DNA from: a virus
Strand: one strand, 5' to 3'
IMG/VR virus record: IMGVR_UViG_3300008116_000173
Coordinates: 8,522 to 72,521 of that record
DNA: 64,000 nt
How positions within the stretch are numbered: position 1 is the stretch's first letter; each line of letters starts with the position of its first letter. Positions 1-16,139 of this stretch are shown one piece after another. The notes under the pieces were generated by a model. The model was not told the origin of the DNA and did no database searches. It saw nothing but the letters and a program-made list of their open reading frames with translations. The position numbers were made by a program, and so were the translations under genes.

Positions 1-1
1 T

Positions 2-3000
2 AATAAATTACCTTTTCTTGAAGAAGCTGCTGCTAAAAATCCTAAATATGCAGCTGATTACATTAATGTTTTAGCTAACATGATGTATTTTGAAACATCT
101 AAACAGATGTTTTATGTAGAACAAATAAGTAAACTAAATGCTCAAATTTTAGATATAGATAACAGTGATAAAAGATTTTTACCACAGAATGAAGCTTTTC
201 GTGAAAAATTTGTTAAACAAATTGAATCATTAGAAAAACTATTATCAGAATCTAAAGAAAATTATAAAATTTTGTTTGATGAAAATGAACAAAGTAAAGC
301 ATATGATGAATATATAAAAGATAGAAAAGAAGAAGAAAATTTAGCACAACAAGCACAAGCTGAAGTTGATGCTGTTAATAATGAATTTGATCCTGTTAAT
401 AATCCTCAAGGTGCAGCTAAAGAACAAGCAGCTGCTGCAAGTAATGTTGCTGAAGATCTTAAAAATGAATTTGGTAATACACAAACTAATCCACCAACAC
501 TTAATGAAATATTAAATCAAAGTCAAGGTGACCGTGCACCTGCACCTACATTAAGTGATGTATTAAATCAAACTGCTCAACAAACTCCTGTTTCTACAGA
601 TGCTAAGAAAGCTGATATAGAAAAAAATTATTTTATAGTTACAATGTCTGGCTCTAGAACTATTGAGCAATTAAAATCAGAAAAAAATCCTGATTTTATA
701 GGAGACTATGAATTTTTAGATTTAGGAGATGGTTTAGTAGCATGGAAAACACCTAAAGATCCAAAATCAACAATTCAACAATATTTAATTGCAGATACTA
801 AATCAAATAGTAAATTAATACATAAAACATCTAAAGATGTAAAAGGTAATTTTGCAAGAATAAATGAACCTAATGTAAAAGCAGATGCTAAGTCTAGTAA
901 TGATAATTATGAATTAAGATTAAATAGATTAAATGAAGCTATTTCAAAAATTAATAATGCAGAACTAGCTGCTTTAGAAGGTAGTAAACCTGCTGAACCA
1001 ATTGCTACTCAAACACCTGTTACATCAACTGTATCTGATGAAGATCAAGATGAAGTATCTAAACAAATAAATAATGTATCAGTTTATTCTCATACTGATG
1101 ATTATGATAATGTTGATAAAATACCTTTAAACTCAATAGAAGGTAAAATAAAACAACTCTGGAATGATTTCAGAATGCTTTTATTTAAAGGTAAAAAAAT
1201 AGGTAAACAATATTTATTTGATCGTAATGAAAATGGTTTGCCTAATTATGAAAATAAATCAGGTATTGATGTTACTGCTTTAAATAATTTAAGAAAAGGT
1301 GATACTGTTAGATTTGAATCACGTCCTTTATCTGTAGATCCAGATGCTATTGCTATATTAGATTTAAATAATAAACTAATAGGTTGGGTTAGGGCTTCAG
1401 CTAAAAAACAATTAGAACAATTAAAAACAAATAATCAGTTAAATACTGAACAAGCTCAAACACTTCAACAATTTGAAGAATGGCGTACAACATTACTTAA
1501 TAAACTTAAATCAGGTGAAGAAGTATATAGTACAGTTCAAGAAAAAGGTACAGGTAACTTATACACTAAAACTATATTATTACCTACAGGTCAACAGATT
1601 GTAGATGCTAATATAGATATATTTAATTCATTTAGAGAAAAAGATACCATACAAAGTAAACCTATATTTGTATATGCAAGTAAAAAAGATGTTACAGGTA
1701 GATCAAAATTAGTATTACCTGAAACAACATTTACACCTGAAGAAAATGCAGCTATTCAAAATAGATTAGAAACATTAAATAAATATGATTTAAAACCAGG
1801 TCGTGTATTTAAATTAATTAAAGATTTAAATGATGAGTGGAGTTTAATGCCATTATATGCTAATAATATTACTGATGATATTTTTAAAGATATAGTTGAA
1901 ATATTAAAAAATACAGATAATGAATCTGATATTCAAATACTTAGTCGTGATTTAAATAAATATATTTATAGTACTACTAATGATAATAAATCAGCACCAT
2001 TATTAATTAAGAAAAATCAAATTAATCAAATTGTTTTTTATTTAGGTACTAAAAGTTTTACATTAGATGATATAAAATCAAAACCTGAAATTTGGAAACA
2101 AGTTAAAGATATACTTAAAAAACAAAAACAAAATATAGAGGTAGCAAACCTTAATCAATCATTTCAACAACAAGAGTATGCTAAAAACAAAACCTTGTTA
2201 ACAAATGTTAATTTATATGAAGGTGAATATTTTATACAACCTTATGTATCTTACGTAACAGATTTTAAAATTAACATAAATCCTAAACCTGTAACTACAA
2301 CACCAGCTGCAGCTAGTGCTCAACCTAGTACTAATCAACAACAAGTTGATAGGGCTGAACGTTTAAAACGTGCAGCAGCTAGGTATAAAAATCCAGATAC
2401 TGAAGGTGCAGCATCAGTTAGACCTGATTATAGTAAATATAATGAAAAGCAATTTAAAGCCTTTTTAAAGAAGAAATTACCTCAGCTTAGTATAGCTAAC
2501 CAAGACCAATTAAATGCTCTTAGAGGGCTTCTAATTGATCCTGTGGGGTATTTTAAAGGTAACCTTATATATTTATTTAAAGGTGCTGGTAATTTAACAG
2601 CTTACCATGAAGCATTTCACGGTGTATTTAGGAATTTATTAACAGTAGCTGAGCGTGAAAATATAATTAATGAAGCTAAAAGTAAGTATAAAGAACCTAC
2701 AAAAGAAGATTTAGATAACTTACAAAAACGTTTAAACAATAATTATACTACTGAACAATTAACTTATTTATATTACGAAGAACAATTAGCTGATGATTTT
2801 GCAATTTATACTAATGATAAAAACAACCGTAGCTTACTTAAAAGAATTACAGATGCTATTAGAGCTATATTTGATAAAATACTGTCCTATTTTGATTTAT
2901 TTGAGAGTGCTAATACCTCAAGTATAAATGATGTATTTGATGCTGTAAATGAAGGTAGATTTAAACAAAGACAATCTATAAGTAATAATGTAGTTAATTT

Positions 3001-6000
3001 ACCTTTGTTTCAAGAAGGTGCTTATTCACCTAAAGCTAAATTAAATATTGGTTTAGCTGATAGAATTAAAGTTGTATCATCATTAGCTGATAACTTTTTA
3101 GCTTTATTGAATCAACGTATAGTTAATGATAAATATGCTGATGTAAGTAAAAAAGATTTATTTAATGGTATATATGATGAATTATACAATCAATTAAATG
3201 AAGCTTTTGATTTAAGCGATTCAGATTTACTTGGTAATGTTATATTAAATTATGCTGATTTAATTAATCAGGATGTTAAAACTAATTTAAAAGAACGTGG
3301 TGTACTTGATAATTTTGATTATGAATTTATTAATAGTGAAGAACGTAATCCTGAATCAAAATCAACATTAACTAATGATGATAAATTAACATTAGCTGTA
3401 TCTGAAACTGAAGAAACTCAAATTAAAGAAGGTAAAGATTCTAAAGGATATAGAGAACAAACTTCTATTTCAGGTTTAACTACTGCATCTGCACGTATTA
3501 AATTATTTTTATCAGCTATACCTGTTTATGAAGAAAATGAAAATGGTGAATTAGTTTATGAAAAAAATGAATTAGGTTTACAAAAATATCATGATTTTAA
3601 ATCATTATATTATTATATAGAAAAGAACTTAATTGATAAATATACTTTTGAAGAACAATTAGCAGTGTTAAAAAATTTAACATCTTCTAATCCTGCTTTA
3701 ATAAGTGTATTAAATAAACTTCAAGTTAATCCGCCCTACATGAGTGCTGAAAGATTTGAAATGTTACAAAATGATTTTAAAACTAATTTTAGTAAACAAC
3801 AACTAGTATACACATTAGTTAAACATTCATATAATCCTGCTAATAATACTATTAGTTTTAAAATAATAGATGCTAATAGAAATAATTTACCTACTAAATT
3901 AAAAGAAAGTTGGAAAAATAGTTATACAGTTAATGTATCTGAAAAAGGTTTATCACAACCAATTAAATTAGAAAACACTCTTAAAAAAGAAATTAAAAAA
4001 CTTGATAATGAAAATGGTGCTTTAGATGTTGATGTTATCAGTTCATTGCTTAAAACTATTCATATTGATTTAAGTAAAAAAACTATAGAAGCTAATGCTG
4101 ATAGTAAAGTATTTGCAAGGGATATAAATGTTGTATTATCATGGTATATTAAAAATAATAATACTAATTATGATGCTGCTACAAGGATAGCTATTGAAAA
4201 TTTAATTAAACTTGAAACAGCTGTAATGATAGAAATGCATTCACAATCATTTATTGATGGTGAAGGTAATAATATCTGGACTATACAATTACCATCTGAA
4301 TTAAGTAAGTTTTTAGCTAAAGTTAAAAATCCTCAAAAACGTGAACGATTTATAAATGATTTCTTTAAAGATGTTTTTTATAAAAATTCTAATTTACTTA
4401 ACGAATTACAACGTAATTCTAAATTTGCTGAAATATTTTCAATATCTTATTTAGATTCATTTAAAGATGAAATAGGTGTTAAAAAAGGTATTGGATTTAC
4501 ATCATTATCACCAAGAGATTATTTAGCTATGAAAATAGCTTTATTTAATAACCTTGAGGTTAATAGTGAAGATCGTTTTACAATGCCTGTAAATAAATAT
4601 TTATATATTGTACCTGCTGATAAGAGTATGCAAGCCATTGTAGACTCTACATCATTTGATGTTTTCTTTGCACCAAACAATATTGAAGTAAGTACCAATA
4701 GTAAAATCATTGAGTCGTTTTATAATATATTTTTACAAGAAGCTAAACGTATAAATAAGTTTAATAAAATAAAAAATAGTTTTTTAACTGAAGGTTCACA
4801 ATCAAAATTTAAACCTACATTGCTTAATGAGTATGGTGTATTTAGTAAAAAAACATATCAAAGTGATTTAGTACAAAATTTATTAAATAAATATAATACT
4901 GAAGGTACATTAACTAATGAAGAATATGCACAATTAGCCAATAAAATGGATGGTCAAGCATTTAAATTTAATTATTTAAATAATGATTATTTTACATTTG
5001 CTAAAAATTTACCACAACAAACTAAAGAGTTAATTAAAAATACATTAGAAAATAGTTTACTTACTGATGATATGCTTGAAAAATCTTTAGCTGCGCAAAA
5101 AAATATAATTAAAAAAGAGTTAGCTTCATTTGTATATAAAACTTATGAAATAACTTTAAAAGAGTGGGAAAGTAAAGGCATAATAACTAAAAATAAAAAT
5201 AATGAATATGTTAATTCATTAGTTCAATTACCTTCTGTAAAAACAACTACTAGTGTAGATCAACGTATTAAAAATTTAGCATTAAAATATAGTGCTAATT
5301 ATTTATTACACAATATTGAACTATCTAATATGTTTAACGGTGATGTATCTCAATATAAACCTAATGATTTACAAAAACGTACTAATCAGTCACAAAGTTT
5401 TATGACTGATGGTAAATTTAATAATCCTGTAATAAGAACTAAAGTAAATAAAGATGTTATACATGATTATTCTTTAGAATCAGATTATACTAACATGGTT
5501 GATGTACTTAAACAATTAGGTGTATCTGATGAACGTATAAATGAAATATTAGATCCATATAAAAAGACTAATGTAACAGATGCTCAAGTAATAATTCATC
5601 CTGAATTTTTTAAACTTATTCATTATTCACAAGGTACTTGGACACCTGAATTAGAAACAGCTTATAACATAGCTGAAGGTATAATACCTGGTGATGCTAA
5701 AAAAAGTGTACAAACATTATTACGTGGTTTTAAACCATTTTATTTTGGTAAACGTTTTGATCCTGTAACTGAAACATGGTATTATGAACAAGTTAAATGT
5801 TCTATGTTTCCATTATTTAAATCTTATACAGATATTAATCCATTATTTGCTTTAAAACGTGAAGAAATGGAAAAAGATAATATAGATATGATAGCTTTTG
5901 AATCATCATTCAAAGGTGCTATAGGTTATAGAAGTGATTTTTTAGATGATAATAAAACTATATTAGAATTAGATGTTAATAATTTTGGTATTCAACAAGC

Positions 6001-9000
6001 TAACCCTGATCATACTACTGAAGGTAATGATTCATTACGTCAGCTTAAAATGATTTTACCAGGTACTATTGACACTAATGTTAGTTATAATGGTAGATCA
6101 GGTGCTGATATATTAGATGAAATATTATCACTTGAAGCTGCTAATTTAAAAACTGATTTAATTAAATTAACTAAATTATTAAATAATCCTTCGTCACAAG
6201 CTGAGTTTAATAGCTTTATTCAAGAAATGATTACTAAGCGTGGTGCTTATGAAGTATTAGTTAATTTTTTAAGTGTTGATGAAAATGGTCAATATATTTA
6301 CCCATTAGATAGTGGTATAACAAGTACTAAAGTACAAGAATTATTATCTAGTGTATTTACTTCTAAAGTATTAAAACAAAAATTTAATCATGGTGGTTCA
6401 TTAGTACAAGCTACTAGTTTAGGTCTTAAGTTTAGTAATTTAAGTGAACAACAAAAAAACCTTACACCTGAATTATTAGCTAAACAACGTAAATTAGAAT
6501 GGTTTAAACCAAACATTCAAACTGGTCAAATAGGTTATGCAGAATGTATTATGCCTGCATCAGCTAAAAAATTCTTTGATGAAAATGGTTTTTTAAAAGA
6601 TATAAATAATATACCTGATGCATTAAAAGAATTTATAGCTTATCGTATACCTACTGAAGGTTTACATTCAACAATGGCTATTAGAGTAATTGAATTTTTA
6701 CCTAAAGAATTAGGTAATTTTATATTATTACCTTATCATGTAACTACACAATTTGGTGCTGACTTTGACTTTGATAAAATTTATTTCTTTGGTAGAGAAT
6801 TTACTACAAGTGTAAATAAGAAAACAGGTAAAGTAACTTACAGAATACCTGAAATGAATTATGATGAAACTGAGTATGCTACTGAACAACGTTATAAAGA
6901 TTATGTATATTCTGTATTACAAGATAAAAATAATGAACTTTATTATGAAGATGTTATTACTGAATATGAAAAATATTATGGTGAACCAATAGCATCATTA
7001 TCTAAAAATGAAAAAATACAAGTTTTAGTAAGTGAAAACATACTAATGACACTAGATAAATTTAGTAAACGACCTATAGAAGAACAAAATACTAAAGCAG
7101 CTAGGAATAATCGTATAGTTGATAATTATCTTAATATTATTACATCTATTGAAAACTTAACTAATATTATTGCACCTTCAAGTTTTAAAGACATTGCTGA
7201 TTTTAAAAATAATTATTTTGGTGAAAATGAAAAAGTTAATTTCTTTGCTGATTTTACACAAAATAATTATAAAAATCGTAACCATACAGGTAGGATATTA
7301 AAAGGTATATGGGCTTTACATTTAACAGGTCATTCATATGCTCGTATATCAGGTTTATCAACTAAACAAAATGTAAATGCTCAAGGTTTTGTAGATTATG
7401 GTAATTCAGTTAATCTTGAAGGTGGTATTACTGAAGGTAATAATCATAGAAATGATTTTTCAAGATTATATAATGATGAAGGTAAATTAATAGCTCGTGA
7501 GTTAGGTAAAGTGATGGCTGCTGTATTAGATGACCTTAAAAATCCATTACTTGAAAGTTTAAATATTAACCAATATACAACACATGCGTTAGCTGCTATT
7601 CTTAGGGCAGGTTATTCTATGGAAACTATGTTATTGTTTTCAAGTCAACCTGCAATAACTAAGTTTTCACAACAGTCTATAGATAATTCAAGTGCTTTAT
7701 CTAAAAAAACTGAACGTTTTGACATTGAAAATTTAAAAGTATCTTATATTAAAATATTAAAAGATATCTATAATAAATATGAATATCAAGATAATCCTGA
7801 TATTAAAAGACTTATGGATACTTTAAATACAAATATACCTATTACAAATGCTGAATTAAAGGATATTTTAACTAATTTTACTAATGACGCTAATGGTAAT
7901 TTAATTAATAAAGTTACTGGTAAAAAACCTAGTGTTGAACAAGCTATGAAATACTATCATGTTCAGGTTAATGTTTTAAAACAAATGGAAAACTTAATTG
8001 CAATAGGTGATCAGTTTAAAAACTTAAATAATTTTTATACTATAAATAAAGAAGTAGGACCTCAAATAGAAGATATTATTGAACAACAAGATTTGTTAGT
8101 TCAAATATCTAAAGATGATATATTACGTGATTATGAAATTGATTCAATGGCTACTTTATATCAAACATGGGATACTCATTTAAATGCTTTAGATTACTTT
8201 TCTAAATACTTTCCTTATAGTAGTGAGCTATACATGGGTATTAAAAGTCAAATAGCTTTAATTCAAAAAAATAAAAGTATTAGCGGTATTAAAACTGATG
8301 ACCGTAAATTAATAAATAACTTTATTAGGACTTATTTAGATTATTCTTTTGAGAAGTTTGTTGATATACCATCTCAATCTGAAGAATTATTAAGATCATT
8401 CCCATCAATGGTTAAACAAATTACTAAAGGTACATCAGGTTTAAAGATAGATGATATATCATATGAAGAATTAAGTAAAAATCCTTTTATAGCTAATATT
8501 GAAGTTAAATTCAATAAAAAAACTGGTTTAAATCAAATTCAATTAAAAAGTGGTCAGTTAATACCTCAAGTAAAAGATAGTATCTCTAATGGGCTTATAT
8601 TGCTTTATAACAATAAAAAAACAAGAGGGTTAGCTGAAAATTTTGTTAAATATGCATTTTTAACTAGTGGTTTTTATACTGGTGTTAATATGTATTCAAA
8701 TCTTATAGATCCAAGTATATTAAAAGCTATGGAGTATACAAATTATAGGATGCAAACAACTAATGATTTAGTTAATGGTACTTTTACATTAGAAGTTGAT
8801 AATAATAGATTAATAGATCAATTAGTTAGAAATTATCCTTATAACTTTACTAATATATTTGATAGTAATTTATTTGATGAATCAACTAAAAATGGTTTAC
8901 CTAATAAATTAACACTTAATGAAGAAGCTTTAAATGAAGCTAATATGAGTGGTTATATGTTTGATACTAAAATTGGTATTTTAACACCACGTTATATAAT

Positions 9001-9952
9001 GGTACGTCAAAAAGATGCTGAATCTACTAAAAAAGAAGGTTTAACATTATATAAATTAGAAAATAATAATGAAGGTTTTAAATATGTTAAAATAAATGAA
9101 TTAGGTAAAAAAGGATTTTTAATAGAAGTAAATCCTTTAGAAGATATTGTTAATAGTGTTGTTAACAGAAATTTAGAAAAAATACCTGATGCTATACTTC
9201 AAGATCCACCTGATGGTGTTGAAAATGATATGATGCCTGAATTAAGTATGTCAAAAGATACTGAATATGATATGGAAGCTAGTATACTTGGTAAATCACA
9301 AGTTGAATTTGATGCTATAGATAAAGCTATTGCTGCTAAATCTATTACTCAACCTATAGTACAACCTACTGAAAGAAAAACTTATTCAGGAAAAGTAACA
9401 AGTTTACAGCCTAATCAAATATTTGTATTTGGAAGTAATCCTCTTGGTATTAATGGAAATCCTTCTAAAGGCACAGGAGGAGCAGCTTTAGTTGCGTATA
9501 ATATTGCAGGTGTTAAACAAGGTGAAAAAATGGATAATAAGTTATCTGATTCAGGAAAAGCTTGGGGAATTACAACAGTAAAAGCTCCAGGACAAAAAAG
9601 AAGTAAAACTCCTGAACAAATAACAGAAGGTATTAAAAAATTATATGAATATGCTAAACAAAATCCAACCAAAGAATTTTTAATTTCTGATTATTCAGGA
9701 ACAAATCTTAATGGTTATACAGGTCAAGAAATGGCAGATATGTTTGTTAATGCAGGATCAATACCTTCTAATATAGTATTTAATAACAACTTTGATAAAT
9801 TAATTACTACTCAACCTACTACTCAACCTACTGCACAAGATAATCAAATATTAAATTCACCACAATTTAAAGAATTTTACAATAAAGAATTAGAAAGTAA
9901 TCCTAATTTAACTGTAGAAGAAGCTTTAGATTATTATAAAAAATGTAAATAA
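2..9952 (+). CDS. Giant virion-packaged RNA polymerase of crAss-like phage (5'-truncated by the window), with zincin-like domain and accessory inserts
   Basis: The frame is open from nt 2, upstream of the ATG at 80. Catalytic-type motif QFGADFDFDKIY (~6749-6784) is preceded by AYRIPTEG, as in crAss-like two-barrel vRNAPs. AYHEAFH...YEEQLADDF zincin motif at ~2600-2800. More than 3290 aa. Confidence 0.9.
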   Translation, partial: NKLPFLEEAAAKNPKYAADYINVLANMMYFETSKQMFYVEQISKLNAQILDIDNSDKRFLPQNEAFREKFVKQIESLEKLLSESKENYKILFDENEQSKAYDEYIKDRKEEENLAQQAQAEVDAVNNEFDPVNNPQGAAKEQAAAASNVAEDLKNEFGNTQTNPPTLNEILNQSQGDRAPAPTLSDVLNQTAQQTPVSTDAKKADIEKNYFIVTMSGSRTIEQLKSEKNPDFIGDYEFLDLGDGLVAWKTPKDPKSTIQQYLIADTKSNSKLIHKTSKDVKGNFARINEPNVKADAKSSNDNYELRLNRLNEAISKINNAELAALEGSKPAEPIATQTPVTSTVSDEDQDEVSKQINNVSVYSHTDDYDNVDKIPLNSIEGKIKQLWNDFRMLLFKGKKIGKQYLFDRNENGLPNYENKSGIDVTALNNLRKGDTVRFESRPLSVDPDAIAILDLNNKLIGWVRASAKKQLEQLKTNNQLNTEQAQTLQQFEEWRTTLLNKLKSGEEVYSTVQEKGTGNLYTKTILLPTGQQIVDANIDIFNSFREKDTIQSKPIFVYASKKDVTGRSKLVLPETTFTPEENAAIQNRLETLNKYDLKPGRVFKLIKDLNDEWSLMPLYANNITDDIFKDIVEILKNTDNESDIQILSRDLNKYIYSTTNDNKSAPLLIKKNQINQIVFYLGTKSFTLDDIKSKPEIWKQVKDILKKQKQNIEVANLNQSFQQQEYAKNKTLLTNVNLYEGEYFIQPYVSYVTDFKININPKPVTTTPAAASAQPSTNQQQVDRAERLKRAAARYKNPDTEGAASVRPDYSKYNEKQFKAFLKKKLPQLSIANQDQLNALRGLLIDPVGYFKGNLIYLFKGAGNLTAYHEAFHGVFRNLLTVAERENIINEAKSKYKEPTKEDLDNLQKRLNNNYTTEQLTYLYYEEQLADDFAIYTNDKNNRSLLKRITDAIRAIFDKILSYFDLFESANTSSINDVFDAVNEGRFKQRQSISNNVVNLPLFQEGAYSPKAKLNIGLADRIKVVSSLADNFLALLNQRIVNDKYADVSKKDLFNGIYDELYNQLNEAFDLSDSDLLGNVILNYADLINQDVKTNLKERGVLDNFDYEFINSEERNPESKSTLTNDDKLTLAVSETEETQIKEGKDSKGYREQTSISGLTTASARIKLFLSAIPVYEENENGELVYEKNELGLQKYHDFKSLYYYIEKNLIDKYTFEEQLAVLKNLTSSNPALISVLNKLQVNPPYMSAERFEMLQNDFKTNFSKQQLVYTLVKHSYNPANNTISFKIIDANRNNLPTKLKESWKNSYTVNVSEKGLSQPIKLENTLKKEIKKLDNENGALDVDVISSLLKTIHIDLSKKTIEANADSKVFARDINVVLSWYIKNNNTNYDAATRIAIENLIKLETAVMIEMHSQSFIDGEGNNIWTIQLPSELSKFLAKVKNPQKRERFINDFFKDVFYKNSNLLNELQRNSKFAEIFSISYLDSFKDEIGVKKGIGFTSLSPRDYLAMKIALFNNLEVNSEDRFTMPVNKYLYIVPADKSMQAIVDSTSFDVFFAPNNIEVSTNSKIIESFYNIFLQEAKRINKFNKIKNSFLTEGSQSKFKPTLLNEYGVFSKKTYQSDLVQNLLNKYNTEGTLTNEEYAQLANKMDGQAFKFNYLNNDYFTFAKNLPQQTKELIKNTLENSLLTDDMLEKSLAAQKNIIKKELASFVYKTYEITLKEWESKGIITKNKNNEYVNSLVQLPSVKTTTSVDQRIKNLALKYSANYLLHNIELSNMFNGDVSQYKPNDLQKRTNQSQSFMTDGKFNNPVIRTKVNKDVIHDYSLESDYTNMVDVLKQLGVSDERINEILDPYKKTNVTDAQVIIHPEFFKLIHYSQGTWTPELETAYNIAEGIIPGDAKKSVQTLLRGFKPFYFGKRFDPVTETWYYEQVKCSMFPLFKSYTDINPLFALKREEMEKDNIDMIAFESSFKGAIGYRSDFLDDNKTILELDVNNFGIQQANPDHTTEGNDSLRQLKMILPGTIDTNVSYNGRSGADILDEILSLEAANLKTDLIKLTKLLNNPSSQAEFNSFIQEMITKRGAYEVLVNFLSVDENGQYIYPLDSGITSTKVQELLSSVFTSKVLKQKFNHGGSLVQATSLGLKFSNLSEQQKNLTPELLAKQRKLEWFKPNIQTGQIGYAECIMPASAKKFFDENGFLKDINNIPDALKEFIAYRIPTEGLHSTMAIRVIEFLPKELGNFILLPYHVTTQFGADFDFDKIYFFGREFTTSVNKKTGKVTYRIPEMNYDETEYATEQRYKDYVYSVLQDKNNELYYEDVITEYEKYYGEPIASLSKNEKIQVLVSENILMTLDKFSKRPIEEQNTKAARNNRIVDNYLNIITSIENLTNIIAPSSFKDIADFKNNYFGENEKVNFFADFTQNNYKNRNHTGRILKGIWALHLTGHSYARISGLSTKQNVNAQGFVDYGNSVNLEGGITEGNNHRNDFSRLYNDEGKLIARELGKVMAAVLDDLKNPLLESLNINQYTTHALAAILRAGYSMETMLLFSSQPAITKFSQQSIDNSSALSKKTERFDIENLKVSYIKILKDIYNKYEYQDNPDIKRLMDTLNTNIPITNAELKDILTNFTNDANGNLINKVTGKKPSVEQAMKYYHVQVNVLKQMENLIAIGDQFKNLNNFYTINKEVGPQIEDIIEQQDLLVQISKDDILRDYEIDSMATLYQTWDTHLNALDYFSKYFPYSSELYMGIKSQIALIQKNKSISGIKTDDRKLINNFIRTYLDYSFEKFVDIPSQSEELLRSFPSMVKQITKGTSGLKIDDISYEELSKNPFIANIEVKFNKKTGLNQIQLKSGQLIPQVKDSISNGLILLYNNKKTRGLAENFVKYAFLTSGFYTGVNMYSNLIDPSILKAMEYTNYRMQTTNDLVNGTFTLEVDNNRLIDQLVRNYPYNFTNIFDSNLFDESTKNGLPNKLTLNEEALNEANMSGYMFDTKIGILTPRYIMVRQKDAESTKKEGLTLYKLENNNEGFKYVKINELGKKGFLIEVNPLEDIVNSVVNRNLEKIPDAILQDPPDGVENDMMPELSMSKDTEYDMEASILGKSQVEFDAIDKAIAAKSITQPIVQPTERKTYSGKVTSLQPNQIFVFGSNPLGINGNPSKGTGGAALVAYNIAGVKQGEKMDNKLSDSGKAWGITTVKAPGQKRSKTPEQITEGIKKLYEYAKQNPTKEFLISDYSGTNLNGYTGQEMADMFVNAGSIPSNIVFNNNFDKLITTQPTTQPTAQDNQILNSPQFKEFYNKELESNPNLTVEEALDYYKKCK

Positions 9953-9968
9953 TAATAACTTATAAATT

Positions 9969-12900
9969 ATGTCACAAAGTTGTTTTAATTTTAGTCTTAA
10001 CGAAAATAAAAGAATAGCTGAAGATTTTGGAGAAATAGAAACTCAAAAATTAATTGAGTTGTATTTTCCAGATAAAAATCCTGCTAGTTATAATGAATTT
10101 ATAAGTAATGATAAAGTAAAAGAAGCTTTAGGTTTAAAAGGTATAACTGAAGCTAACAAACTTTTAAATACTAATTATAAAAAAGAAATTAGTAATCAAC
10201 AATTAATTAATTTAAAAAGTATTATTAGTCAAACTAATAATAAATTAAAAGGTGAAAATAAAAACATAGTATATAAATTATACAATGTTAAACAATTAGG
10301 TGAATCTGATAATTATACTTGGGGTATACGTGAAATAAAAGGTAATTTAGATGTTGATGCTAAAATTGAAAGAGCTTTAACTAGAGGTAAAACTGAACAA
10401 GCTAAAAATTTAAAAAATTTAAATGATAATAATCAATTAACATTATTTCAATTATCTAATAAACAAATTATTAAACCAGGAGTACAAGAACTATTTGATT
10501 CTAATCCTGAATTAGCTAATCAAGTATATGAAGCTTTAGGGTTTAAAAATCAAACACCTAAAAGATTAACTAAATCTGATAGAACTTTATCTAAGTATAT
10601 ATCTATTGGAAAATCTGAATTTGAAAAAGCTCAAAAAGAAGCCAATACCAAAAGTTCTGATTTTAATCATAATGGATTTAGATGGTATGAATCTGAGGAT
10701 GAGTTATTTGGTGGAAAAGATTGGAGAAAAGATGAATTACCACAAAGTAATAGTGGAACTTTTGAGGATGATTACTATAAGTTACAAGTAGAATTTTCTC
10801 AAAAAGCAAGAAGTTTTCATCCAGAAGATTTTGATGAAATGGGTTTTGAGTTATTGTATGATTTACCTCAAGATGAATTATTTCAAGCTATCAGATATTG
10901 GTATAAACCTTTAGAAGGAATTGAATTTACAGAATTAGCTGATATATATGACCCAAATTCTTCTTATAATAAAAAACATCCAGAAGATATTAAATCTAAA
11001 GATGCTTCTGATTTAAGAAAGTTTATTGAAAAAGAAATAGGAATTAAAAATAAACTATACCCTTCCTTAAACAACCAAATAACCCCACAACAAAAACAAA
11101 AAGCTCTACAACTATACTCTCAATACTTAGATACTATATTTCCTGAAAGAACAAATATTGTTTATTCTACATCAACACTAGATGATGGAAGTAATTTTTT
11201 AACAGATGATATAAATTATTCAAAAAAATATAAAGGTATTACAAAACCATATATTGTAAATTTAAAAAATTCTTTAAAAACTAATTATGGTATTAATATT
11301 GCAATTTCTAATATATTATTTGAAGAAAATCCTAATATAGATGTAATTTATGGTAAAGAAGGAGAAAGAATAAGTTATAAAGATATATGGGCTGAAATTC
11401 AACAAGATCCTGATTTAACACAAAATGAAGCTATAAAATTATTATCATCTAGACCAACAAGAAATATTAATGTTTTTGTTGTTAAAAATAAATCAGAAAA
11501 ATATGAATTAAATACTAAACAAGATATTGAAAATTTTAAAAATTTTATTAATAAAGAAAATAAATTAAATAATTTTGATTTAGATATTGATGAAAATCTA
11601 ACAAAAAAAGAAAAATTAACAAAATTTTTTACTCAATTTGGTTTTAAATTTGAAGAAGGAGATTTATCAACAGATTTATTAAAAAAAATAATATATGTTA
11701 ATAAAAATGATATTGAATTATTTATTAATAATTCTGTAAAAGCTTTAAGTCAACTTTTATTAGCTAATACTAATATAGATTTTAATAAACTTAAAAATTT
11801 AATTGAAAATACTGAAGAATTTAAAAGTTTATTAAATAATTCAACAACTGAATTTAAAAATAATTATTATCATATAAACAGTGGTAATAAAATTCCAATT
11901 AATGATTATAGAATTTATCAAAAAGATTATGAAAATATAAAAAAACAAGTAATTGAAAAATATTTAAAAGAATCTTTATTAGATAATAAAAATTTAAAAC
12001 CTTTACACAAATTAATTATTGATTTTATTAATTGGTTAAAAAATTTATTTGAAACTGCTACAAATTTAAAAGATATTACTGATAGTTTAATACAACAAGT
12101 TTTTGAAAATCAAAAAGAAATTATTATTAATTCTAATCTTTTAAAAAATAAAGAAAAAGTTAATTTAAATAAAGCTTTAAAAGAAACTAAACATGGTAAA
12201 AATATAATTAAAATATTTGGTGATTTTGGTTTAATTCTTACTGGTAGTATAAGTGCATCTGAACAAGGTACTATTTGGAGAAAAATTGGTAAACTTTTAC
12301 ACGATATTGATTGGATTGTACCTAAAGATTTTAATAAAGATTATTTACAAAAATTATTTGATGAATTTCCTGGAGCAACATTAATAAGACAATTTGATAG
12401 TCCTGGTTATTACACAAGAACATATGTTGTTCCACCAAAAGGATACACTATTGCTAATTTAGAATATTTTGAAAAAGAAAAATATAATGAAAAATATATT
12501 AAACAATATGATTTGTTAGATCAAAATAATAAAATAGTTAATAATTATAGAAGATATTATGATGTAACACCTGAAGGAAAAGTTTACGAAACAAAAGAAG
12601 TTTATAATGAAAATTTACAAAATGTTGATGTAAATTTAGATCCTGTATTAGTTGATTTTTTTGAAAATAAACAAAATTTAGAATTTAAACCTTATACTGT
12701 AAATGTAGAAGGTGTTAAACTACAATTATCAAATTGGTTATCTTCTTTTTCTGAAAAATTAAGATACGGTAGAGCTAAAGATTTATTAGATTATGCTTTA
12801 TTTATACCTAATGATTTAAATCAATCAAAAGATAATAAATCATTTCAATTAGAACCAACAATACAAAAAGATCCTACTGAAATTATTCAACAAGTTGATA

Positions 12901-15900
12901 CTTTATTAAATGATTATATTAATAACAATAATATAAAAGTTGAATTTAAAGATAGGGTTTTAGATGATAATGGTAATGATGTTGTAGCTTTTTACAATAG
13001 TGTTAAAAAAGTTATTGAGATTAATCAAAATCAACGTGATAGTAAAACATTACCTGAAGAATTAGCTCACCATTTACATTTAGCTTTAGGTAAAGATCAT
13101 ATACTTGTTAAACGTGCTTTTAACCTATTAAATAGGGTTGATTATAAAGCTATGTTAGGTCAAGAATATGTTGACTTATATAAAAATAATACAGATTTAT
13201 TAAAATTTGAAATATTAGGTAAATTAACTGCAGCAGCAGTACGTGGTGAAAAGATACCTTTACAAATGAATACTGTTGAAGGTAATAAGCTTTGGGATAC
13301 TATTAAACGTATGATTGATGCTGTTATAAAGTTATTTAAACCTGATGTAAATGTTCAAAAAGAACTTGATAATTTAAGTAATCAATTTGCTAATATGCTT
13401 AAATCAGGTGTTAAAGTTGATAGTGAAAAATCAATTAATGCTAAATTATATCAAACTAATAAAGATTTAATTAATTTAAGTTCTAAAATTAAACCTGCTT
13501 ACGTTTATTATACAACATTATCAACAGCACTTAAAAAGAAACAAAAACAATTTAGTGCATTATCTGAAGAATATAAAATTATTCAAAATCAAATTAATAC
13601 TATTGATATATCATTAAGAGAATTAATTCAAAATGAAAATGAATTACCTTTAATTAATCTTGTTGAAGAAACTATAACAACTGTAGCTCAAAACATTAAT
13701 GATTTTGAAATTAATTATTCTAAAGGTATAATGCCTTCAGAAAAAAATATTATTGAAGCTGTTGAAATACTTAAAAAGTTTTCAGGATTTCCTGGTACAG
13801 AAAGTAAAATTAATGCTTTAAAAGCTAGATTAATTAATTTTATTAAACCTTATTTAGCAAATAAAGCTTCTGAGGTATTAGGTAAACCTGTTACTGAGGA
13901 AGATATATCTGCTGTAACAAGTGATATTAATGTACTTGAAAAGAATTTTGGTACATTAGCAAGAACTGAATTTACATTATCACGTATGCTTGGTTTATTA
14001 ATTAAACAAAAGCAAAATACTATAGAACGTGAAAATAAGCAAGCTTTTGAACAAGTACAAGCTGCTACTAATAAATTAAAAGATTGGGCAGCTAGCAAAG
14101 GTATGTCTTTAGAGCAAGCTTTTGATGTATTACAACAAGAATACAGAGGTACTAGAATATTAACTAAAGAATATACTAGTGAATTTTATAAGTTAATTAA
14201 TGATACTTATAAATTAGATCCTGAAAAAGCTAAAGAAGCACGTGCTAAAATAGCTATTTGGGATGCTGCTAATAAAAAATGGATACCTAAATCTACTAAG
14301 TATAATAATCCAAATTACCAATTAATACATAAAAAAGGTAATGAAGATTTATTAAACTATTATAATTTCTTTAAAGATCAAATTCAAAAAATATCTGATA
14401 ATACATTACCTATTGAATTAGATGATTATTTTATACCTAATGTGTATGAAGAAACACTTTTAGATATATTAAAAACTGAAGATGCTGTTGGTGATAAATT
14501 AAAAGATAGTGTTATCCATATATTAGAATTTAATCCATTTGAAAAAATGGGTACTGTTGATAAGCAGATGGATGTTATTTATGATGCTGATTTGATTGGT
14601 GATAAAATACCTTTAAAATACATTCAAGCACTACCTGAAGATAAGAAATCTAAAAATTTAAGTGCAGCATTATTAAAATTCATGTATTTTGCTAATAGTT
14701 ATAATCACATGAATGAAATATTACCTATTGCTAACTTAGTTCAGGAAACTATAACAGACCCTGATACTAGTAAAATACTTCAATATGGTAACCCTAACTT
14801 AAACGTTGCTGCTAAATCTAATATAGTTGACATGGTTAAAACTATAAAAGAAATGCAGATTTTAGGTAAGATGCGTAAAGAGAATGAAATGTTTAATGTA
14901 TTAGGTTATAAATTAAACTATGGTAAATTAATTGATTTTGGTTTACAGTACACTTCTAAAATACGTTTAGGTTTAAATCCATTTGCTGCATTAGCTAACG
15001 TTGCTGTAGGTAACTTAGGTAATATTATTGAAGCTGCAGGTGGTAAATACTTTACATTAAGTGAATATTTTAGTGCTTTAGGTACCTTTACAACTGAAGC
15101 TAAAAAAGTAGATGGATTGATTAATCTATTTAACCCTTTGATGGAAATGGATGATTATGAAAATCTTAAAAAATTAGGTGTTGGTTCTAAAGAATACCGT
15201 GAAAAAATAAATGGTTTGTTATATGCACCTACACGTATGGGTGAAAAACAAATGCAAACTACTACTATGATTGCTATATTAAAGCATAAAAAAGTTGACA
15301 TTAAAGATAAAAAAGGTAATGTAACTGGTAGTATATCAATGTTAGATGCTTTTGATAGTAATGGTAAATGGGATACTGCTAAAATGGGTTATGAATTAAA
15401 TGAACAAGAAATTAATAAAATAACCAATAGAGTACATGGTGTTAACCAAATGATTCATGGTAGGTATTCAGCTAAAGATGCTGCTGCAATGCAACAATAT
15501 GCTATGTATAGGGCTTTAATGCAATTTAAAAAATGGATACCAGCTGCTGTTGAACAACGTTTTATGGCTAGACGTTATGACCCACTATTAGATGAAGAAA
15601 CTGAAGGTAGGTATTGGGCTTATGCTAAAGGTCTTAGACTTATGATGGCTAAATTAAAAAATGATGCCAAAAAGATTGAAGAAAATAAGTTTACTGAATT
15701 AGATTGGTATAACATGCGTAGAAATGCTATGGAAGTACTAATGATAGGTTTAATGTTTGGTTTAACTACTTTCCTTAAAGCTGGTGATGATGATGATGAA
15801 TTAAAGCGTAATGCAAGTTATAAGACTTATATGCGCCTTTTAAACAGCGTTAGTGGTGATTTAATGCAATGGTATTTACCAGGTACATTTTTAGATAAAG

Positions 15901-16139
15901 CTATGGTATTACCTGTAACTAAAACATTAAGGTCACTTGAAAGAACTATACAGTATACACCTTATATGTTTGGTGATTATACTAGTGATGCTTCAGGTAC
16001 TTATGAAGCTGGTGAACGTAAAGATGAAAATAAATTCTGGAGTAATTTCTTTAATAATGTACCTTTTGGTAGTACTACTGCTGACATGTACAGAACATGG
16101 TTTAAAGATGATGTAAGTTACATACCTCGTAATAGGTAA
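9969..16139 (+). CDS. Giant virion (ejected/cargo) protein of the RNAP gene block, with inserted domains
   Basis: 2056 aa directly after the vRNAP. LPEELAHH degenerate zincin-like motif, internal NTase motif TGS...HDIDW, and a C-terminal region (MQFKKWIP...RF, EGRY, hydrophobic helix) resembling large phage ejection proteins. Confidence 0.75.
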   Translation: MSQSCFNFSLNENKRIAEDFGEIETQKLIELYFPDKNPASYNEFISNDKVKEALGLKGITEANKLLNTNYKKEISNQQLINLKSIISQTNNKLKGENKNIVYKLYNVKQLGESDNYTWGIREIKGNLDVDAKIERALTRGKTEQAKNLKNLNDNNQLTLFQLSNKQIIKPGVQELFDSNPELANQVYEALGFKNQTPKRLTKSDRTLSKYISIGKSEFEKAQKEANTKSSDFNHNGFRWYESEDELFGGKDWRKDELPQSNSGTFEDDYYKLQVEFSQKARSFHPEDFDEMGFELLYDLPQDELFQAIRYWYKPLEGIEFTELADIYDPNSSYNKKHPEDIKSKDASDLRKFIEKEIGIKNKLYPSLNNQITPQQKQKALQLYSQYLDTIFPERTNIVYSTSTLDDGSNFLTDDINYSKKYKGITKPYIVNLKNSLKTNYGINIAISNILFEENPNIDVIYGKEGERISYKDIWAEIQQDPDLTQNEAIKLLSSRPTRNINVFVVKNKSEKYELNTKQDIENFKNFINKENKLNNFDLDIDENLTKKEKLTKFFTQFGFKFEEGDLSTDLLKKIIYVNKNDIELFINNSVKALSQLLLANTNIDFNKLKNLIENTEEFKSLLNNSTTEFKNNYYHINSGNKIPINDYRIYQKDYENIKKQVIEKYLKESLLDNKNLKPLHKLIIDFINWLKNLFETATNLKDITDSLIQQVFENQKEIIINSNLLKNKEKVNLNKALKETKHGKNIIKIFGDFGLILTGSISASEQGTIWRKIGKLLHDIDWIVPKDFNKDYLQKLFDEFPGATLIRQFDSPGYYTRTYVVPPKGYTIANLEYFEKEKYNEKYIKQYDLLDQNNKIVNNYRRYYDVTPEGKVYETKEVYNENLQNVDVNLDPVLVDFFENKQNLEFKPYTVNVEGVKLQLSNWLSSFSEKLRYGRAKDLLDYALFIPNDLNQSKDNKSFQLEPTIQKDPTEIIQQVDTLLNDYINNNNIKVEFKDRVLDDNGNDVVAFYNSVKKVIEINQNQRDSKTLPEELAHHLHLALGKDHILVKRAFNLLNRVDYKAMLGQEYVDLYKNNTDLLKFEILGKLTAAAVRGEKIPLQMNTVEGNKLWDTIKRMIDAVIKLFKPDVNVQKELDNLSNQFANMLKSGVKVDSEKSINAKLYQTNKDLINLSSKIKPAYVYYTTLSTALKKKQKQFSALSEEYKIIQNQINTIDISLRELIQNENELPLINLVEETITTVAQNINDFEINYSKGIMPSEKNIIEAVEILKKFSGFPGTESKINALKARLINFIKPYLANKASEVLGKPVTEEDISAVTSDINVLEKNFGTLARTEFTLSRMLGLLIKQKQNTIERENKQAFEQVQAATNKLKDWAASKGMSLEQAFDVLQQEYRGTRILTKEYTSEFYKLINDTYKLDPEKAKEARAKIAIWDAANKKWIPKSTKYNNPNYQLIHKKGNEDLLNYYNFFKDQIQKISDNTLPIELDDYFIPNVYEETLLDILKTEDAVGDKLKDSVIHILEFNPFEKMGTVDKQMDVIYDADLIGDKIPLKYIQALPEDKKSKNLSAALLKFMYFANSYNHMNEILPIANLVQETITDPDTSKILQYGNPNLNVAAKSNIVDMVKTIKEMQILGKMRKENEMFNVLGYKLNYGKLIDFGLQYTSKIRLGLNPFAALANVAVGNLGNIIEAAGGKYFTLSEYFSALGTFTTEAKKVDGLINLFNPLMEMDDYENLKKLGVGSKEYREKINGLLYAPTRMGEKQMQTTTMIAILKHKKVDIKDKKGNVTGSISMLDAFDSNGKWDTAKMGYELNEQEINKITNRVHGVNQMIHGRYSAKDAAAMQQYAMYRALMQFKKWIPAAVEQRFMARRYDPLLDEETEGRYWAYAKGLRLMMAKLKNDAKKIEENKFTELDWYNMRRNAMEVLMIGLMFGLTTFLKAGDDDDELKRNASYKTYMRLLNSVSGDLMQWYLPGTFLDKAMVLPVTKTLRSLERTIQYTPYMFGDYTSDASGTYEAGERKDENKFWSNFFNNVPFGSTTADMYRTWFKDDVSYIPRNR

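Follow-up and report, generated by a model that had tools for sequence, protein, structure and literature searches.

A variable slot in a giant phage protein

The window analysed here is a stretch of 64,000 nucleotides (nt) of viral DNA (IMG/VR record IMGVR_UViG_3300008116_000173, positions 8,522 to 72,521 of that record). Near its left end a giant open reading frame (ORF) carries a cassette held between two short peptide arms, and this cassette is the subject of the present study. Judged by homology, the protein encoded by the ORF, P0003, is the virion RNA polymerase (RNAP) polyprotein of a freshwater crAss-like phage, and the window begins at its residue 568. An original prediction, made from the letters of the window, had marked positions 578-1021 as the cassette. 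The segment text, the QTPV peptides and the arm peptides were found there as it gave them, in the frame of the giant ORF, reading QQTPV-STDAKKADIEK ... INNAELAALEG-SKPAEPIATQTPV. The ORF and the parts of the slot are as follows.

2-9952, + strand: giant ORF, its 5' end cut by the window; the full protein, P0003, has 3,883 amino acids (aa)
371-592, + strand: upstream linker rich in Q, T, P and A (type A), with the left QTPV at 581-592; co-inherited with the cassette in the ortholog P0005
593-625, + strand: N arm, STDAKKADIEK, a short form of the consensus (D)IEAKKADIERRRQEEL from an alignment of 61 N arms
626-949, + strand: payload interior of about 108 aa, predicted to fold as an alpha/beta domain of four strands and two helices, a short one and a long one at the C-terminus
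950-982, + strand: C arm, INNAELAALEG, with the consensus INAKYDAELAALE(G) in the C-arm alignment
983-1021, + strand: type X linker downstream of the cassette (SKPAEPIATQTPV), which includes the right QTPV (1010-1021) and belongs to the backbone rather than to the cassette

The cassette corresponds to residues 768-897 of the 3,883 residues of P0003. It is internal to the protein and has two arms, and each arm motif was found once in the six frames of the 72,521-bp contig. We consider, with a probability of roughly 0.7, that a conserved socket here holds exchangeable payload cassettes and that window 593-982 is one such allele.

Exchange of the cassette among close orthologs

P0003 and its ortholog P0004 are 94-100% identical over residues 1-3630 except at 691-897, and over 691-885 the identity is only 23-43%. 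The backbone of P0005 is 47-85% identical to that of P0003, yet the two proteins are 99-100% identical over 691-897. P0006 tracks P0003 to residue 767 and diverges at the N arm. The upstream linker of type A (P0003 residues 691-767) is 99% identical in P0005 and P0006, 43% in P0004 and 39% in P0007. On the other side of the slot, the type X linker is common to P0004, which has another cassette, whereas P0005, which has the same cassette, carries ATSVPT... instead. Across the five orthologs there are two types of upstream linker, two of downstream linker and four interiors, in mosaic combinations.

On the right, every breakpoint among the orthologs coincides with the C arm. On the left, some lie at the N arm and others some 77 residues further upstream. 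In the comparisons with P0004 and P0005, the exchanged block extends from about 371 to 991 of the window. The slot that the original prediction placed at 578-1021 is real, with the correction that the exchanged block begins and ends further to the left. The orthologs do not carry one common colinear segment at this place: the four interiors found in the five proteins are unrelated, forming separate BLASTP clusters without mutual matches. At the level of these aligned sequences, the comparisons demonstrate lateral exchange with breakpoints at the arms.

The upstream linker of the window contains a tandem duplication of 17 aa, at 491-520 and 542-571 (PPTLNEILNQ... / APTLSDVLNQ...), of which the DNA copies are 80% alike. 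The alternative linker, type B (P0004 and P0007), has a single copy of the 17-aa unit.

The arms in IMG/VR

We searched IMG/VR with two degenerate DNA patterns that encode the arm peptides, which gave 130 loci in giant ORFs of uncultured phages. The search pattern dictated the C-arm peptide but placed no constraint on the N arm, on the IN.K extension or on any synonymous site. At 98 of the 120 C-arm sites in these loci an N-arm motif lay at most 400 aa upstream. The motif was present in 83 of 97 upstream windows, whereas 0 of 39 control windows, placed 600-1000 aa downstream within these ORFs, contained it. Together with those of the five orthologs, the interiors between the two arms numbered 103 and fell into 65 BLASTP clusters, with lengths of 29-320 aa. 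The original prediction had stated that such ends bracket unrelated inserts, and the 65 interior clusters found between both ends bear this out. No Pfam or PHROG family was common to more than one of the 65 cassette representatives, and the arms are therefore not a listed family.

The proteins that carry the arms are related outside the slot as well. Colinear BLASTP matches to the P0003 backbone were obtained from 41 of the 116 arm-bearing ORFs, falling in the zincin-like region (24 ORFs, P0003 residues ~1300-1600), the RNAP (21 ORFs) and the N-terminal domain (10 ORFs). In these matches the N-terminal domain precedes the slot, and the zincin-like region and the RNAP follow it.

Tandem cassettes occur in four loci (L055, L117, L129 and L062), with the C arm and the next N arm spaced ~9-10 residues apart. 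The same junction of C arm to N arm was seen in metagenome contigs of runs X5 and X7.

Conservation of the arm DNA

The DNA of the arms appears to be conserved together with the peptide. The 79 arms with the exact peptide INAKYDAELAALE occurred in 39 DNA versions with a mean pairwise identity of 0.89. We analyzed codon choice in 65 C arms with distinct interior tails. The first Ile, I1, was encoded by ATC in 43 of them (background 0.10), and A7 was encoded by GCA in 53 (background 0.33), the other three Ala positions favouring GCT. CTA was used at L9, the first Leu, in 34 (background 0.11), and TTA was favoured at the second Leu. The codons for AELAALE in the window, GCA GAA CTA GCT GCT TTA GAA, are those of the family majority at 7/7 positions, and CTA is rare for Leu in the window ORF (10/321). 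The AAAGCTGATATAGAA codons in the N arm of the window are likewise the family majority codons. In the N arm, a 3-base deletion at 605-607 (KK to K) was present in the contigs of all four metagenome runs examined and in P0005, P0006 and L131, so that the KK of the window is the minority form.

Two loci, L026 and L053, have flanks that are 80-95% identical, and their DNA identity collapses exactly between the arms. The window cassette itself was found in contigs of four freshwater or plankton runs, and one contig from run X5 covers positions 1-2500. Short metagenome contigs join window 606-626 to 954-960, in other contigs the C arm is followed after 14 or 29 letters by the N arm, and three different sequences stand ahead of position 957 in three runs. 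The sides of these joints are 18-34 nt long at 80% likeness and possibly derive from other organisms, and we take the joints to show that arm DNA is re-used, and do not count them as alleles of the phage studied here.

Taken together, unrelated payloads between the same arms, conservation of synonymous codons and identity breaks at the arms argue that payloads are swapped by recombination within the arm DNA, at times together with the upstream linker. The original prediction had proposed an exchangeable domain with the ends serving as homology for its swapping, and this proposal gains support from the ortholog mosaics, the IMG/VR loci, the arm codons and the comparison of L026 with L053.

Predicted structure of the socket

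A minimal module of 59 aa was modelled with AlphaFold2 from 15 sequences. The model reached a predicted local distance difference test (pLDDT) of 84.5 and a predicted template modelling score (pTM) of 0.63, with helices at residues 2-20 and 39-55. Its fit to solved helix-loop-helix hairpins extends over 46-53 residues at 2.1-3.0 Å and is a likeness of geometry, not of homology. According to the model, the arms of the minimal module form an antiparallel helix-loop-helix hairpin. The socket would be a pair of short amphipathic helices, with (D)IEAKKADIERRRQEEL as the N arm and INAKYDAELAALEG as the C arm, and the payload would sit at the tip of the hairpin.

The 148-aa segment of the window, modelled from two sequences, gave a mean pLDDT of 67.7 and a pTM of 0.60, and residues 41-135 stood at 72-88. 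In its model a sheet of four strands is accompanied by two helices, a short one and one of 25 residues that extends from the payload into the C arm. A helical stalk had been part of the original prediction. The antiparallel hairpin predicted for the minimal module agrees with it; in the window allele the N arm is short and was modelled with a pLDDT below 50, and the stalk reading is therefore limited to the minimal module. In the window's own allele, too, the arms may form a hairpin socket. When the two arms were submitted as separate 32-residue chains to complex prediction, the score was 0.11 (mark 0.32), a result that we give no weight either way. Foldseek searches against the PDB returned no match at E <= 0.001 for the cassette model, and two rows at E 9.4 for the minimal module.

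The polyprotein and its relatives

Two motifs downstream of the slot bear on the nature of the whole protein.

2606-2620, + strand: HEAFH, a motif reading that marks a presumed zincin-like metallopeptidase region
6761-6775, + strand: DFDFD, read as the DFDxD catalytic motif of crAss-like virion RNAPs described in 10.1101/2020.03.07.982082

In tblastn searches, residues 1700-2563 of the window ORF matched the 'putative RNA polymerase' of crAss-like phages in 107 records at 23-24.5% identity. The match in crAss001 is Gp50 (24.5% identity, E 7e-34). The solved phi14:2 polymerase, 6vr4, was matched by P0004 (E 4.5e-22) and P0005 (E 4.1e-18). A zincin-like domain is present in orthologs of phi14:2 gp65, and a fusion of the three proteins of the phi14:2 type (gp65, gp66 and gp67) has been reported 'in some phages' (10.1101/2020.03.07.982082). 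RNAP homology, DFDFD and HEAFH occur together in P0003, which therefore appears to be the fused polyprotein form known from that paper. Several unrelated domains are joined in this single polypeptide, namely the RNAP region, a domain of the A1S_2505 type, the family-less payload and the HExxH region.

Whole-protein hmmscan of P0003 to P0007 gave nothing relevant. The scan of P0007 over its whole length (3,772 aa) gave no ART-PolyVal at E <= 0.1, yet its excised 176-aa cassette did. Negative results from whole proteins of this size are therefore weak, and such proteins have to be scanned in pieces. A megablast search of window 1-6000 against phages found no match. In the environment, the stretch was recorded in 20 run records from 16 studies, mostly of freshwater.

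What the payloads are

The interior of the window cassette has one relative among 1.84 billion representatives, P0015, at 46% identity (E 1.1e-22). The match covers residues 1249-1358 of an otherwise unrelated protein of 1,433 aa and includes long invariant stretches. DLGDGLVAWK, the best-conserved stretch of the payload, is its most likely functional site. Other searches added little. A tblastn search of the 181-aa segment against phages gave just two rows at E = 7, and a search for related viral contigs with window 2-571 gave none. Protein homologue searches found none at 'longer' lengths with the segment, and only P0003 and P0005 with the region 771-890. In the ESM Atlas the recognition value was 1798, below the useful mark, and the clusters returned were unnamed.

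One allele of the slot could be identified. The cassette of P0007, excised as residues ~770-945, is ART-PolyVal (PF18760), with 42.2 bits against a cut-off of 31.2 and an E-value of 1.7e-10. ART-PolyVal is an ADP-ribosyltransferase family defined for polyvalent proteins and compared functionally with the injected T4 protein Alt (PMC5512222). The window cassette itself showed no such domain. Pfam scans of ten long cassette representatives yielded no family, and two of the ten look like ADP-ribosyltransferases by eye only. An interior of 150 aa, found in six loci (L053, L099 and L019 among them), also resembles ADP-ribosyltransferases by eye (FHGG ... SFSATP), and a scan of L099 found no Pfam family.

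A possible role of the payload follows from work on related phages. The RNAP-related proteins gp47, gp49 and gp50 are present in crAss001 virions as capsid cargo that needs partial unfolding to exit (PMC10172136), and the phi14:2 RNAP is translocated with the DNA (10.1101/2020.03.07.982082). By analogy, the polyprotein described here would be carried in the virion and delivered into the cell along with the DNA, and the payload would act on a host target in the first minutes of infection, for takeover or counter-defence. Relatives are packaged and enter with the DNA, and early action of the payload on a host target is therefore probable by this analogy. The ADP-ribosyltransferase in the slot of one ortholog fits the view of an injected effector. 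The earlier wording that the arms are 'displaying' a domain should not be taken as exposure on the virion surface, as the relatives of this protein are capsid cargo.

Weighing the cassette reading

Several points weigh against the reading given above, some against the socket and others against the proposed role of its payload. The window's N arm, besides its low pLDDT, carries STDAKKADIEK without the RRRQEEL of the consensus ...KADIERRRQEEL; P0004 and P0006 are equally short, and P0007 is full. In the IMG/VR survey the C-arm peptide was fixed by the pattern itself, and the N-arm motif was missing at 22 of the 120 C arms, 8 of those cases being cut off by the end of the ORF or locus. The binomial tests on codon choice ignore the shared ancestry of the arms, and the metagenome joints are short. 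The fold search of the cassette model (VIA) gave a best Z of 6.1 (part of a GNAT protein) and a Z of 4.6 for AcrIIC2, both at noise level, and both this search and Foldseek used the two-sequence model with the mean pLDDT of 67.7. The window payload matched no Pfam, PHROG or NCBIfam family and showed no catalytic signature. Among the 65 cassette representatives a solid Pfam family was found in one, and the term 'effector' is therefore generalised from a single case. P0003 gave no 6vr4 row against the PDB at E <= 1, although P0004, which is 94-100% identical to it, matches; the missing row is probably due to the way phmmer filters very long queries. Finally, packaging and injection of this polyprotein are extrapolated from distant homology (23-24.5% identity) and from the papers on related phages.

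We considered whether the arms are mainly processing junctions, at which the zincin-like peptidase or a prohead protease would cut, for example after ...ALEG, and so free the payload, recombination being a by-product. HEAFH lies downstream of the slot, and an HExxH occurs no more than 700 aa after the last C arm in 29 of the 77 ORFs with at least 300 aa downstream. Zincin-like metallopeptidases have been proposed to process polyvalent proteins (Iyer et al. 2017, PMC5512222), and fused polyproteins are described as 'likely cleaved' (10.1101/2020.03.07.982082). The arm peptide is also kept across phages whose backbones can barely be aligned. However, a cleavage site needs neither two different helices of 17-20 residues nor a compact predicted hairpin, position-specific synonymous codons are left unexplained by cleavage, and no Pfam family, peptidase included, was found on the window protein. 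We regard processing as unlikely to be the main function of the arms. Cleavage at the arms by the zincin-like region may occur, and it would be compatible with a socket for exchangeable payloads.

A second explanation is that the slot is a tolerant spacer in a packaged structural protein and that the payloads are neutral passengers without action on the host. Such a spacer could account for the 64 of 65 cassette representatives without a solid Pfam family, for interiors as short as 29 aa and for the rarity of the window payload, with its single relative among the 1.84 billion representatives. It does not account well for a cassette that is kept at 100% between P0003 and P0005 while their backbones are 15-53% different, or for a payload that shares 46% identity and long invariant stretches with a domain of the unrelated P0015. 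One allele, moreover, is a recognisable enzyme (ART-PolyVal in P0007), and few single-base differences occur in 626-949 among the matches listed from four environmental runs. Neutral payloads seem to us distinctly improbable.

The original prediction had called the cassette foreign-looking and bounded by QTPV repeats. QTPV does occur on both sides, at 581-592 (caaactcctgtt) and 1010-1021 (caaacacctgtt), with 11/12 bases alike, and it is not the cassette boundary. P0005 and P0006 have the left copy only, P0004 has the right copy only and P0007 has neither, and L131, which carries the same cassette, has QIPV on the right; each copy therefore belongs to its backbone linker. A shared word of four residues between the two 20-aa linkers arose in 1.9% of shuffles, and 36 four-residue words, QTPV included, occur twice within 450 aa of the protein.

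The codon counts behind the term 'foreign-looking' were reproduced. Gly is encoded in the cassette by 3 GGT, 2 GGA and 1 GGC, compared with 112/132 GGT in the backbone, and Arg by AGA in 4/4 cases, compared with 35/88 in the backbone (40 CGT, 11 AGG, 2 CGA). The Fisher p-values, 0.058 for Gly and 0.029 for Arg, are uncorrected and concern residues picked post hoc. Over the whole cassette the synonymous log-likelihood stood at the 32nd percentile of 130-codon windows, GC content was 0.259 compared with 0.258, and GC content at third codon positions stood at the 16th percentile of ORF windows, so that codon usage gave the cassette no overall distinctness. At its ends we found only short direct or inverted DNA matches at chance level, and no long repeat. 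A recent foreign insertion by a mobile element, with QTPV as its target duplication and with alien codons, would draw on the flanking QTPV copies and the nominal Gly and Arg differences, but it is very improbable given QTPV copies inherited with the backbone linkers, the cassette without a right QTPV in P0005 and L131, composition within the ORF's own range, ends without long repeats, and an interior with no nuclease or integrase-like content and no family found.

Other features of the region

A second variable slot was found near the C-terminus of the same ORF.

9356-9805, + strand (region 9320-9838): second variable slot, between ...AAKSITQP (...DKAIAAKSITQP) and TTQPTTQPTAQ, with a domain of the A1S_2505 type at ~9419-9793

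The domain was recognised by NCBIfam NF049995 (60 bits, cut-off 45) and by phrog_2072 (E 3e-18). Over this slot, P0003 residues 3631-3883 are 11-36% identical to the orthologs. P0004 and P0005 carry other modules there, P0006 has the empty junction SITQPSTQPTAQ, and the end of P0007 is different. Pfam scans of these C-terminal modules gave only a weak Macro row for P0005 (14.3 bits, cut-off 22) and nothing for P0004.

Between the first slot and the zincin-like region lie about 450 residues (window 992-3900; P0003 ~900-1300) that were matched by 1 of the 116 arm-bearing ORFs. In most relatives HExxH sits 85-200 residues after the C arm. The stretch may be another lineage-specific insert. The next ORF, at 9969-16139 on the + strand, encodes 2,056 aa without a Pfam or PHROG family; its product is probably a further giant protein belonging to the transcription or cargo block.

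Relation to known systems

The general class to which the protein belongs, the polyvalent proteins, is already known, and we found no description in print of the two-arm socket. A literature search for the arm peptides and for polyvalent or RNAP proteins of crAss-like phages, with supplements outside its scope, returned no published account of a two-helix socket. Polyvalent proteins (PMC5512222) are similar in being giant multidomain proteins delivered with the invading DNA, which combine a virion RNAP, a zincin-like region and variable accessory domains, and their ART-PolyVal domain occupies this very slot in P0007. They differ in that the paper deals with N4-like RNAP fusions and domain networks, whereas the present RNAP belongs to the crAss type (two-barrel, DFDxD). 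The available portion of that paper describes no two-helix socket, arm motifs or conservation of junction DNA.

The proteins gp65, gp66 and gp67 of phi14:2 (10.1101/2020.03.07.982082; 6vr4) and gp47, gp49 and gp50 of crAss001 (PMC10172136) share the homologous RNAP region with DFDxD. Presence in the virion and translocation were demonstrated in those phages. No variable cassette or socket is described in the available portions of those reports. The slot lies in the N-terminal, gp65-like part of P0003, which is unaligned to cultured phages (the phage alignment covers residues 1700-2563 only).

T4 Alt is a packaged and injected ADP-ribosyltransferase that modifies the host (PMC5512222). Alt and the other internal proteins of T4 resemble the proposed payloads as capsid-borne effectors that act before phage gene expression. 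They are, however, separate small proteins with capsid-targeting signals and not modules of a polymerase polyprotein.

In polymorphic toxins (CdiA with VENN, Rhs with a DPxGL-type motif) and in MuF-fused phage toxins, a short conserved peptide and its DNA border an exchangeable domain and are thought to guide recombination. Polymorphic toxins have a single border, a C-terminal toxin and an adjacent immunity gene. The cassette described here differs from CdiA and Rhs in being internal and in having two different borders that are predicted to pair, and it lacks the C-terminal, single-motif arrangement. Where the target of the protein is the host of a lytic phage, no immunity gene would be expected.

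Significance

As a broader proposal, which we put forward tentatively and with the odds somewhat against it, the arms may form a general plug-in socket. Near-constant arm DNA would let any phage that carries it trade payloads, much like an integron site but in frame. Phages of water and soil, crAss-like ones and their relatives, would then share a large pool of mostly uncharacterised first-minute effectors injected as part of the polymerase polyprotein, and the window payload would be a new domain for host takeover or anti-defence.

The crAss-like phages are among the most abundant viruses known, and the giant proteins of their 'transcription block' are their least understood part. A recognisable socket would give a simple rule for dividing such proteins into backbone and payload. 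It would also be a way to harvest candidate injected effectors from metagenomes, as 65 clusters came from two pattern scans, and a natural design for payload swaps in a cultured relative. Apparent conservation of DNA at a protein junction, as in the synonymous-codon signature of the arms, is rare.

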